A stretch of 25,301 bases of DNA from Candidatus Aenigmatarchaeota archaeon. GTDB lineage: Archaea > Aenigmatarchaeota > Aenigmatarchaeia > PWEA01 > JAGHBM01. A model generated the notes under the pieces. The model searched no databases, was not told the origin of the DNA, and worked only from the letters and a program-made list of their open reading frames with translations. Within the stretch, counting starts at the first letter, position 1. Every line of letters starts with the position of its first letter. Made by a program: the position numbers and the translations under genes. This document shows positions 4,399 through 9,275 of the stretch, piece after piece. The DNA lies in assembly GCA_021160955.1 (NCBI GenBank), contig JAGHBM010000003.1, forward strand, positions 1 to 25,301. Direction: 5' to 3'.

Positions 4399-6375
4399 TG
4401 GGACAAAAACCAGTGATATCATCGCCATGAGTTTTATCAAGATGTTCAAAGAAGGTCCAGAAGTATCCTTGAATGGATCACCAACTGTGTCACCAACCAC
4501 GGCTGCCTTGTGGGCATCGCTACCCTTTCCACCAAGATTTCCACTTTCTATGTACTTCTTTGCGTTATCCCATGCCCCACCCGCATTTGCCATAAAGACC
4601 GCGAGGAGAAATCCACTTGCCGTTGCACCGATTAGCATTCCACCGAGTGCCTGAGGTCCAAGTAAGAATCCGACGAGAAGGGGAGATGCTATCGCCAACA
4701 GACCTGGTAGAATCATTTCTTTCAGCGCGTGATTGGTGCTTATTTCAACACATCTCGAGTAATCGGGCTTACCCCTGCCACTGAGAAGTTTTAGTTCCTT
4801 GAACTGTCTTCTGACTTCTTCAACTATTTTTTCTGCAGTACGACCAACAGCCCTCATGGTCATGGAGGAAAACAAGAAAGGAAGCATTGCACCCAAAAAC
4901 AAACCCACGATCACAATTGGACTCGCCACCGTGAGTGAGGACGTATCCATTCCCATTGATTTGATGTAGGCAGATATTAGTGCGAGTGCGGTCAAGGCTG
5001 CAGAACCTATGGCGAATCCCTTTCCCGTTGCAGCGGTCGTGTTCCCTATTGCATCGAGGGCGTCCGTTCTCTCCCTCGTGGATTCTGGCAGGCCGGACAT
5101 CTCCGCTATACCACCGGCGTTGTCGGCAACCGGTCCATAAGCATCGGTGGAAAGTGTTATTCCAAGTGTAGATAGCATTCCTATCGCAGCGAGAGCAATA
5201 CCAAACAGACCTGAGAAATGATAAGACGAAAGTATCGCGGCCGACACAACTATTACCGGTATTACAGTGGACAACATGCCGACAGAGATTCCTGAAATTA
5301 TCACCGTTCCCGGACCGGATAAAGAAGAGTGGGCAATGAACTTGGTTTGCCCATAACTTTGAGAAGTGAAATACTCAGTGGAATAACCAATTATCACACC
5401 AGCAACTAAACCTGAGACCACGGACAGGAATATGTTCATACCATTTGGAAAGTATCTGGATAAGAGATATGTGAATATCACAACTAATATGGCGGAAGAA
5501 AAGACTCCCTTTCGCAGTGCCCACAGTAGTTTTCTTATTTCAACTTGCTCGCCGGTTCGAATGAAAAACGTCCCAATCAGTGAGGAGAGAATTCCTATTC
5601 CAGCAATTGCCAAAGAAACGTATATACCATTCATTCCCATAACGAGGTATCCAAGTATCATGGCAGAGATTATGGAACCGACATAAGATTCGAACAAGTC
5701 GGCACCCATTCCAGCCACATCGCCAACGTTGTCTCCAACTTGGTCTGCTATTACACCCGGATTTCTTGGATCATCCTCGGGAATCCCTTCTTCAACTTTT
5801 CCAACGAGATCGGCACCAACATCGGCACCCTTTGTATAAATTCCTCCACTGACCCTGGCAAAGAGAGCTATTGAAGAGGCACCAAAGCCAAAACCAACTA
5901 TGAAGTTCAGCGCACCGTTGATCCCGTTGAAATTTTTGAGCAAAAGGAAAACCAACACCAACCCAAGCAACCCGAGACCAACGACGGACATTCCCATAAC
6001 TGATCCAGAAGAGAATGCAATCCTGAGTGCCTTGTTCAAACTTTTTTCAGCAGCTTCAGATGTCCTCGCATTTGAATTGGTTGCAATTTTCATGCCAAAG
6101 TAACCTGCGGATGCCGAGAGAACCGCACCGATGAGAAAAGCAAGAGAAACCCACGGACTTATCAAAAGCCACAGAACGATGGCCATCACAATTGCATAGA
6201 TGGAAACTATCTTGTACTCACTCTTGAGGTAAGCGTTGGCACCCTCTTTTATGGCGACATTTATTTCAAGAACTTTCTTATTTGAAATGGGAATTCTCAA
6301 TATTTTGAGAGAAACCAAGAGGGAGTATATCAAAGCCAAGACAGCCATAACGATTGAAAATATCAAGAGATCCAT
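4378..6375 (-). CDS. hppA: Membrane-integral ion-pumping pyrophosphatase, K+-dependent, probably Na+-translocating
   Basis: Motifs [82 protein letters not shown] and [14 protein letters not shown]; GGTGA SD upstream. Confidence 0.97.
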
Positions 6376-8399: not shown

Positions 8400-8480
8400 T
8401 AAAGTAAAGTAATAAAATAACAAACAGCAAAACAAAAACATAAAACTATTAAAAAAACAAAAGTAACAAAAAAGTTTTGA
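8400..8480. repeat. Low-complexity, strand-asymmetric A-rich tract (imperfect AAAAC/AAAGT units)
   Basis: aaagtaaagtaataaaataacaaacagcaaaacaaaaacataaaac... is mostly A on the + strand with very few G. Confidence 0.6.
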
Positions 8481-8481
8481 T

Positions 8482-8496
8482 AAAAATAGCCCCGTA
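8482..8496 (+). repeat. Direct repeat of the tRNA-Gln 5' end (AAAAATAGCCCCGTA; second copy 8584-8598)
   Basis: Exact 15-nt match spaced 102 nt apart, containing tRNA positions 1-9. Confidence 0.85.
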
Positions 8497-8604
8497 ACCG
8501 TAGGAAACTTTTAAAAAAGTTTCATCAAAACTTAGATGAAGGCAATTTGGCAATGAATAAAAAGACACCAACAAAAAATTATAAAAAATAGCCCCGTAGT
8601 CTAG

Positions 8605-8685
8605 GAGGCCTTTTCTTTCACAAAGAAAAGCACTCGTGGAAAAGAAACTTCCACGAATTTTGTGAAATAGGAAAGGCCTAGGCAA
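8605..8685 (+). other. tRNA intron 1 (81 nt, D-loop position 15/16)
   Basis: Central helix G10-U13 (GUCU) pairs with AGGC 8680-8683. Bulges are AG|G and AA|U. Inner helix AGGCCUUUU 8606-8614 pairs with GAAAGGCCU 8671-8679. The outer helix is absent (relaxed motif). Confidence 0.85.
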
Positions 8686-8708
8686 TGGCCAAGGATGCCG
8701 GGCTTTGG

Positions 8709-8748
8709 TTTTAAAACCAAAGCATTGAGCTTTGCAATGAAAGAAGAA
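8709..8748 (+). other. tRNA intron 2 (40 nt, canonical position 37/38)
   Basis: BHB: C32-U35 (CUUU) pairs with GAAG 8743-8746; bulges GG|U and AA|A; inner UUU/AAA; outer helix is the anticodon stem. Confidence 0.88.
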
Positions 8749-8769
8749 ACCCGGTGACCCAGGTTCGAA

Positions 8770-8940
8770 CCCCTACGGAGGGAACACATTTCCCTCCTTA
8801 TGGACATATCCTCCCTTTGTAATTTTGGGCAAACTGAAAGTTTGCCATGATATTGGTTGGGTCCCATAGTCTGGACCAATGTGGACAACCCAACCAAAAT
8901 TTAAGGGAGGGGTCAGACGGATAGCGGTTCCGCGCGGAGA
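8770..8940 (+). other. tRNA intron 3 (171 nt, T-loop position 59/60)
   Basis: BHB: U54-G57 (UUCG) pairs with CGGA 8935-8938; bulges AA|C and GA|U; outer helix is the T-stem; inner closure is only C8771-G8934. The body holds several strong stems. Confidence 0.85.
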
Positions 8941-8958
8941 TCCTGGCGGGGCTACCAA

Positions 8959-8978
8959 TTTTTATTTCTTGAATTTTA
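8959..8978 (+). terminator. Oligo-T terminator of the tRNA gene
   Basis: TTTTTATTTCTTGAATTTTA immediately follows the CCA. Confidence 0.6.
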
Positions 8979-9275
8979 TCACTTGTCATCATTCGGCTCG
9001 CTCAAAATTTCATAGGTGATTATCTCCGTGTATATCTTTTCTACGGACAGTATGGGAGTGATGATTCCATAGCTCATTCTCGAACCTTCAAACTCTCCCA
9101 TGGGAGCAGATGAAAATTTTTCATCTTTGAAAATAAACACATCAAGAAGCCTACCTTTTGAGAAGAAATAGACGAAAGGTGTGAGGATTCTCACCTCTTC
9201 CCATAGGTTTAATTTATCTTCAATGGTTTTCCAGTCATCGGAGCGAGAAAAATTATCATTAGATATCCTTCCCAA
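8979..9275 (-). CDS. Small hypothetical protein (start uncertain, TTG)
   Basis: 98-aa ORF with plausible composition; overlaps the 9209-9379 ORF in another frame. Confidence 0.45.
   Translation of the reverse strand: MGRISNDNFSRSDDWKTIEDKLNLWEEVRILTPFVYFFSKGRLLDVFIFKDEKFSSAPMGEFEGSRMSYGIITPILSVEKIYTEIITYEILSEPNDDK

Follow-up and report, generated by a model that had tools for sequence, protein, structure and literature searches.

Gene Structure and Genomic Setting

The window, meaning the whole stretch of 25,301 nucleotides analysed here, contains on its plus strand a tRNA-Gln(UUG) gene with three introns at positions 8590-8957, as read from the sequence and compared with intron-poor homologues. 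The exons occupy 8590-8604, 8686-8708, 8749-8769, and 8941-8957, and the CCA end is encoded. Intron 2 (8709-8748, plus strand) has 40 nt and is located at the canonical 37/38 position; the anticodon stem is formed by 8698-8702 and 8750-8754, and the loop by 8703-8708 together with A38 at 8749. The gene was missed by ARAGORN, run with and without introns, and by the Rfam search at gathering thresholds, while a permissive Rfam scan of 8400-9100 returned noise-level matches only. In the whole genome (609 kb in 82 contigs, 86% complete, 38.7% G+C), ARAGORN with introns reported 4 tRNAs and the Rfam tRNA model gave 8 hits, of which 4 exceeded the threshold; several of the Rfam hits spanned model positions 8-63 only. 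Introns interrupt nearly all tRNA genes of this genome, and fragments of introns 1 and 3 are repeated at many loci, both here and in relatives. The sole splicing-endonuclease gene found (contig C11, 611-1225, plus strand) encodes a protein of 204 amino acids with an N-terminal and a catalytic domain, corresponding to an alpha-type unit; a second subunit was not detected in the 86%-complete genome, though introns occupy non-canonical sites.

Two minor features flank the gene. The first 9 nt of the tRNA, together with their A-rich upstream context, are repeated at 8488-8502, 100 nt upstream of the gene. Downstream, at 9053-9089 on the plus strand, weak Rfam matches to C/D snoRNAs (SNORD52, E = 0.19) surround a UGAUGA at about 9059-9064; this stretch, in which no CUGA box was seen, overlaps a minus-strand open reading frame (8979-9275) and is probably noise.

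The Palindrome and the Splicing Fold

Sequence analysis revealed a perfect inverted repeat of 22 nt at 8702-8723, with arms at 8702-8712 and 8713-8723 and zero spacer. No other perfect zero-spacer palindrome in the window has arms of 8 nt or more, and this one is the longest in the whole 609-kb genome. When the window was simulated 300 times with a first-order Markov model, a single simulation reached an arm of 11 nt. The left arm consists of tRNA nt 31-37 (8702-8708), with the anticodon bases U34, U35, and G36 at 8705-8707, followed by intron bases 1-4. These coordinates agree with those given in a first-pass annotation of the locus, as do the positions of a second GCTTTG (8729-8734) and of a CATTG/CAATG pair (8723-8727 and 8735-8739) that had been listed as two further pairing options.

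In the minimum-energy fold of 8698-8754 (-17.7 kcal/mol at 37°C), the anticodon stem is retained and the two arms pair as a palindrome hairpin, while the best fold of the same stretch that is competent for splicing through a bulge-helix-bulge (BHB) has -13.8 kcal/mol and relies on a CAAAGC/GCUUUG hairpin; these energies are from ViennaRNA, which scores neither kink-turns nor proteins. BHB-competent conformers account for 0.02-0.1% of the ensemble under a strict definition, and for 0.5-2% when the central helix alone is required, throughout the range from 37 to 80°C. In the full 369-nt precursor, the palindrome hairpin is present in both the minimum-energy and the centroid folds. The duplex is closed in cis by a 4-nt loop and places the 37|38 junction within a continuous helix, and thus the palindrome fold excludes the BHB. 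Folding of 8698-8754 bears out what had been annotated in this respect, namely that the palindrome hairpin is incompatible with the BHB and the other two hairpins are compatible with it.

A BHB can nevertheless be drawn for intron 2. Its 3′ strand (8743-8749) provides GAAG at 8743-8746, which pairs with nt 32-35 (8703-8706) in a central helix of 4 bp, and the two bulges are 8707-8709 (G8707 G8708|U8709) and 8747-8749 (A8747 A8748|A8749). The outer helix is formed by three A-U pairs between 8710-8712 and 8740-8742. Cleavage is expected after the second base of each bulge, and the splice sites fit this expectation. When compared to the canonical archaeal BHB intron, intron 2 is alike in the 4-bp central helix (nt 32-35 with GAAG), in the two 3-nt bulges cut after the second bulge base, and in its conservation, but it differs in that the BHB is not predicted to be the stable state of the naked RNA and in that its outer helix of three A-U pairs is shared with a kink-turn, described below.

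Conservation and Covariation of the Putative Guide Helix

A BLAST query consisting of the anticodon arm and the intron gave matches in 96 of the 301 genomes of the class, belonging to 53 of its 151 genera. About 90 loci were fetched, and 72 distinct tRNA-Gln(UUG) or tRNA-Glu(UUC) genes with a 37/38 intron were parsed, a sample that is biased to module-bearing genes, as the query contained the intron. All 72 introns follow a common plan. A short spacer precedes the element antisense to nt 31-37, which is followed, after an unpaired base, by NNGA; a hairpin or short loop then leads to NNUGA (present in 71 of the 72), and beyond it lies a purine-rich tail, the final bases of which form the BHB by pairing with nt 32-35. 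Exactly one base separates the antisense element from NNGA in every intron, and the motif itself reads TTGA in 58 cases and CTGA in 5. The core duplex of 7-9 bp was likewise found in all 72 homologues, which come from many genera. Among the sampled tRNA-Gln(UUG) genes of the class, three lack a 37/38 intron, and thus the module is widespread and not universal. In the genome under study, a tRNA-Gln(CUG) paralogue (contig C80, about 4400-4720, minus strand) contains stretches that match introns 1 and 3 at about 81% identity and carries no 37/38 intron, indicating that the guide-bearing intron is specific to the U34 isoacceptor.

In the window, the antisense element is the right arm of the palindrome (8713-8723), which extends from N+12 to N+2 upstream of the NNGA motif; it is followed by the unpaired N+1 base A8724 and by UUGA at 8725-8728. 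The duplex runs from N+2 to N+10, or to N+12 if the loop is ignored. The palindrome of the window therefore corresponds to the conserved hairpin of the class with four additional U-A pairs, this outer UUUU/AAAA extension being common to one related genome only (G007). On this comparison, the palindrome is best described as the pairing of the anticodon loop of tRNA-Gln with a putative guide element inside the intron of the same gene.

Covariation analysis showed that the guide helix (nt 31-37 with the antisense element) is 96.3% paired in an alignment of 70 sequences, as compared to 18-62% when the partner is slid by 1-3 columns, and none of 500 shuffles matched the guide-helix scores. Double changes occur at three pairs of this helix, for example from G36-C in Gln to C36-G in Glu, and from U33-A to C33-G. 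RNAalifold predicted, without any hint, the guide hairpin and not the BHB, and added a pair between intron base 1 and N+9, both sides of which have changed in 33 sequences. This pair (columns 12 and 23 of alignment A1) is UA in 24 sequences and AU in 22, with GC, CG, GU, and UG in addition, and its covariation indicates that the guide duplex reads across the 5′ splice site. Since the mature tRNA no longer contains intron base 1, it is the unspliced precursor with which the antisense element has been selected to pair.

Box D-Like and Box C-Like Motifs Form a Kink-Turn Signature

Further analyses revealed that the two conserved motifs next to the antisense element have the signature of a kink-turn. 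The upstream GA, which is directly followed by the capping stem, represents the non-bulged strand and is box D-like, while the downstream strand, composed of a stem, three bulged bases ending in U, and then GA, is box C-like. At the sequence level, the GA is present in 72 of the 72 homologues and the UGA in 71. Pair counts were obtained by anchor-based script parsing and not from the alignment, as MAFFT was unable to align the box C-like region because of its length variation. By this parsing, the 4n-4b pair among 71 sequences is U-A in 60, C-G in 6, G-C in 1, and U-G in 1, both the 4n-4b and the 3n-3b pairs covary, and the 3n-3b pair is the canonical U.U in 5 sequences. In 47 of the 71, the cap forms a stem of 2 bp or more whose pairs vary and covary, and in the rest it is a short, K-loop-like loop.

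In the window, UUGA (8725-8728, plus strand) would be the non-bulged strand, and its register is the same in all 72 homologues. The box C-like element AAUGAAAG (8736-8743, plus strand) has a bulge AAU at 8736-8738, with G8739 and A8740 placed for sheared pairs with A8728 and G8727, and with the pairs A8741-U8726 and A8742-U8725 beyond them. The cap GCUUUGC (8729-8735, plus strand), at the position equivalent to the C-stem, consists of just two G-C pairs around a UUU loop of 3 nt, which counts against a guide function of the intron. Compared to the consensus boxes, AAUGAAA matches RUGAUGA at 4 of 7 positions and UUGA matches CUGA at 3 of 4, the changes at 4n and 4b being compensatory, while near-canonical boxes are found in some homologues (CUGA with GAUGAUGG in L079, and also L059). 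These box-like elements beside the right arm had been overlooked in the first-pass annotation, together with the register described below.

The 40-nt intron contains one pair of boxes only, without the bipartite C/D plus C′/D′ arrangement and the guides of about 12 nt, and thus the module is classed as a variant and not as a standard member of the box C/D family. It has a single antisense element, and the tail beyond the box C-like motif is the BHB strand, with no second guide-plus-box for nt 39. To our knowledge, half-size guides with a single kink-turn have been shown to be functional in vitro only.

The second GCTTTG, which had been annotated as an alternative partner able to take CAAAGC, belongs to this cap. 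The idea that it is a designed or conserved decoy was rejected, given that the same 7-mer also caps the intron of a tRNA-Glu gene (L070) whose guide does not match this cap, and that most homologues have other caps. The CATTG/CAATG hairpin, which amounts to the two strands of the kink-turn pairing in an alternative, Watson-Crick manner, is not conserved among the homologues.

Competition Between the Putative Guide Fold and the BHB

The central helix of the BHB joins nt 32-35 to the four intron bases that precede the final two; in 70 sequences, this helix is 98.9% paired and shows double changes at nt 33. The BHB shares the anticodon-loop bases with the guide helix, and the GA and next bases with the box C-like motif, and therefore the two folds are mutually exclusive on both strands. 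The guide fold was more stable than the BHB in 61 of the 72 homologues, with a median difference of 3.3 kcal/mol, and the minimum-energy fold included the central helix of the BHB in 1 of the 72. By the same measure, the window gave 2.2 kcal/mol and is thus typical of the set, not extreme. In this gene, capture of the guide by the GCUUUG of the cap stabilizes the BHB fold by approximately 10 kcal/mol, and the cap may, according to this model, help the hand-over to the BHB here.

A Fixed Register on the Wobble Nucleotide in Several tRNAs

The guide base opposite the wobble nucleotide 34 lies exactly 5 nt upstream of NNGA in all 72 homologues, and the pair at this N+5 position is A-U in all of them. 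The register is fixed despite varying spacers, the N+5 base having an intron index of 6-15, the box-to-box distance ranging from 2 to 48 nt, and the tail from 4 to 10 nt. In the window, A8720 (N+5) forms a Watson-Crick pair with U8705 (U34), and pairing starts at N+2 with N+1 left unpaired, as in standard guides. This constancy of the register favours a methylation guide over a bare splicing gate.

Other tRNA genes of the genome were inspected by two home-made scans, one for anticodon arms with introns and the other for 7-mer hairpins next to NNGA...UGA; the output of both was noisy, and the clear tRNA cases were picked by eye. The tRNA-Trp(CCA) gene (contig C14, minus strand, oriented offset about 4472) has a 37/38 intron of about 88 nt that carries the module with N+5 on C34. 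At the end of this intron, a single base separates the antisense to nt 31-37 from CUGA, which a 6-nt loop connects to a box C of the GAUGAUGG type (AUGAUGG) and the BHB tail; with its canonical boxes in the same layout, the intron represents an internal positive control for the module of tRNA-Gln. In addition, the order antisense, one base, UUGA, hairpin, and NNUGA, with N+5 on nt 34, was found in tRNA-Leu(UAA) (contig C2, +1744), tRNA-Leu(CAA) (contig C42, +115), and tRNA-Glu(UUC) (contig C2, +612). The same module is present in tRNA-Lys(UUU) of relatives, while a module-bearing tRNA-Lys(UUU) was not found in this genome, which is 86% complete, so that the negative result carries little weight. 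Each antisense element fits the anticodon loop of its own tRNA, which common descent from a single sequence cannot explain.

A Putative Intron-Borne Guide for Methylation of U34

Taken together, the anatomy of intron 2 and its comparison with homologues suggest that the intron is probably a minimal, single-kink-turn guide of the box C/D type, directing 2′-O-methylation of U34 of its own tRNA before the intron is removed. The proteins that such a guide would employ are encoded in the genome as open frames without stops, namely L7Ae (PF01248, E = 6e-32), Nop5 (PF01798, E = 5e-48), and fibrillarin (PF01269, E = 5e-91), on contigs C9, C42, and C72. From the local anatomy, its conservation and covariation, the competition of folds, and these protein genes, we infer the protein binding, the methylation, and an order of events as follows. 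During transcription, the anticodon loop (nt 31-37 and the first intron bases) would fold back on the guide and form the palindrome hairpin, which is expected first because it is local and transcribed ahead of the 3′ strand of the BHB. L7Ae would then bind the kink-turn or K-loop and recruit Nop5 and fibrillarin, and fibrillarin would methylate the 2′-OH opposite the fifth guide position, that is, of the wobble U34. Once the complex gives way, nt 32-35 would re-pair with GAAG (8743-8746) and the box C-like bases with intron bases 2-4, so as to form the BHB, which would be cut by the splicing endonuclease EndA before a ligase completes the reaction. The excised intron, probably circularized, could also act in trans on other precursors. 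As the guide fold and the BHB are mutually exclusive, methylation would precede refolding and splicing. Besides the very small cap, features that count against a guide function are the degenerate boxes of this gene, the single kink-turn where standard guides have two, and the closure of the guide duplex in cis by a loop of 4 nt, which the RNP may not tolerate.

The first-pass annotation had proposed a bistable structure that gates splicing by temperature, co-transcriptional timing, or a protein. The bistability holds, in that there are two exclusive folds, both conserved with compensatory changes, of which the locked one is the more stable in most homologues; the temperature trigger does not, and among the triggers considered a protein fits best. 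As judged from sequence comparison, there is a fair likelihood that what had been called a switch is a hand-over from a modification-competent to a splicing-competent fold.

A rather unlikely alternative is that the kink-turn binds L7Ae or another protein while the antisense element masks the anticodon, serving as a timer or quality control for splicing or folding without methylation. L7Ae binds many kink-turns outside C/D RNPs, and a timer would be in keeping with two mutually exclusive folds that are both conserved, with degenerate boxes, and with a single kink-turn. It would, however, have no need of an invariant 5-nt register on nt 34 in six tRNA species, nor does it account for the tRNA-Trp of the same genome, which has the same layout with canonical boxes. 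Moreover, C/D guides elsewhere are documented to target U34 of tRNA-Gln (PMC6009581, PMC7668247).

It also seems unlikely that the guide acts mainly in trans, in which case the excised circular intron of 40 nt would be the active guide on other pre-tRNA-Gln molecules or on another RNA, and the hairpin in cis a by-product to be melted for splicing. Precedents are the tRNA-Trp guide of Haloferax volcanii, which was reported to be trans-acting (PMC4090602, PMC11408192), and the frequent circularity of archaeal tRNA introns and C/D sRNAs (PMC7994747, PMC3491384). Nevertheless, the covariation of intron base 1 with N+9 indicates a precursor target, which fits action in cis or in trans on precursors and not on mature tRNA, and the extra UUUU/AAAA pairs of the window lengthen the precursor duplex only.

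Very unlikely is an RNA-only bistable switch, in which the palindrome hairpin would gate EndA cleavage through temperature or the timing of transcription, without a protein partner. Such a switch could draw on the hairpin being the minimum-energy fold and excluding the BHB, and on the ability of the cap GCUUUG to capture the guide with the gain for the BHB fold mentioned above; yet the capture hairpin is not conserved, the conserved and covarying GA and UGA boxes are left unexplained, and the modelled balance flips at no temperature. The locked fold remained dominant at all modelled temperatures (37-80°C), and a temperature switch was rejected. Finally, chance is scarcely credible as an explanation, and so is a scar left by the birth of the intron through inverted duplication of the anticodon loop, as had been suggested earlier. 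The perfect 11 + 11 zero-spacer symmetry does resemble a fresh inverted duplication, and the outer UUUU/AAAA extension is confined to this genome and its one relative; yet the arm length is rare in simulations, the core helix is present in every sampled homologue across many genera and kept by compensatory double changes, and in Gln, Glu, Lys, Leu, and Trp alike the antisense is complementary to the loop of the tRNA concerned.

Relation to Known Guides

The closest known system to the putative methylation guide of intron 2 is the intron of euryarchaeal pre-tRNA-Trp, which guides formation of Cm34 and Um39 (PMC4090602, PMC11408192). This intronic box C/D guide is attributed to Haloferax volcanii and to Pyrococcus (sR50) by Clouet-d'Orval 2001 and Singh 2004, as cited in two reviews (PMC4090602, PMC11408192), and while the 2014 review calls the tRNA-Trp intron guide unique, the 2024 review cites no other (PMC4090602, PMC11408192). 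The two systems are alike in the 37/38 intron, in the antisense to the own anticodon loop with N+5 on nt 34, and in the exclusive guide and BHB folds. They differ in that the intron of tRNA-Trp has about 100 nt and four boxes (C, D′, C′, and D) and targets C34 and U39, whereas the intron described here has 40 nt, one guide, and one kink-turn, with degenerate boxes in the order guide, D, cap, and C, and the hosts of the module are tRNAs for Gln, Glu, Lys, and Leu.

A second case was proposed for Nanoarchaeum equitans, where the 66-nt intron of elongator tRNA-Met is a C/D sRNA, and this organism also has permuted, circular C/D RNAs (PMC3491384). The likeness to intron 2 consists of an intron-borne guide in a tiny DPANN-type archaeon and a degenerate box C; unlike intron 2, it involves another tRNA and a larger stable RNA, and nt 34 of the host tRNA is not established as its target.

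Stand-alone guides for the same nucleotide have been described as well. U34 of tRNA-Gln is the predicted target of sR27 in Pyrobaculum (PMC6009581) and of a guide in Sulfolobus acidocaldarius, in which Um34 was observed in tRNA-Gln(UUG) (PMC7668247), and guides of Pyrococcus target the wobble base of Leu(CAA), Leu(UAA), Met, and Trp (PMC7994747). These guides share the nucleotide, the tRNA species, and the N+5 geometry with the module, but each of them has a gene of its own, contains two kink-turns, and acts in trans, while here the guide lies within the intron of its target. The set of module-bearing tRNAs overlaps strikingly with the known wobble targets of C/D guides.

At the level of the class, we tentatively propose, with somewhat less than even confidence, that small-genome archaea have relocated their wobble methylation guides to the very tRNAs that these guides modify (Gln, Glu, Lys, Leu, and Trp), inside the canonical introns, as single-kink-turn modules of 28-50 nt in which the modification fold comes before the splicing fold. 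If true, the principle of a guide in the intron of its own tRNA would extend to U34 tRNAs (Gln, Glu, and Lys) and to Leu in many genera of these archaea, and a natural guide could consist of a single kink-turn and approximately 9 nt of antisense, which would make it the smallest natural box C/D guide. It would also give these introns a function, and with it a concrete, testable reason why archaeal introns persist at 37/38 by the anticodon, and would build the order of modification, refolding, and splicing into the RNA. Genes of this kind are invisible to standard tRNA finders, and odd stable hairpins at splice sites deserve to be read as possible guide-target duplexes.

Other Elements in 37/38 Introns of the Genome

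In the intron of tRNA-Lys(CUU) (contig C29, +8139), a 7-nt antisense to nt 29-35 precedes ACGA, a GCUUUUGC cap, and AAUGA, and N+5 falls on C32 instead of nt 34; this element may be a guide for Cm32 or may have arisen by chance. A different repeated cassette is present in several 37/38 introns, including those of tRNA genes for His (contig C2, +7685), Gly(UCC) (contig C14, -7160), and Thr(CGU) (contig C74, -2599); in this cassette, a CAAAACUGGCU stretch and a motif resembling GUGA or UGAUGG come after a CUUUUAC...GUAAAAG hairpin. In addition, the intron of tRNA-Gly(UCC) starts with a palindrome of 12 nt, CTTCCA|TGGAAG, which is centred on the 5′ splice site.
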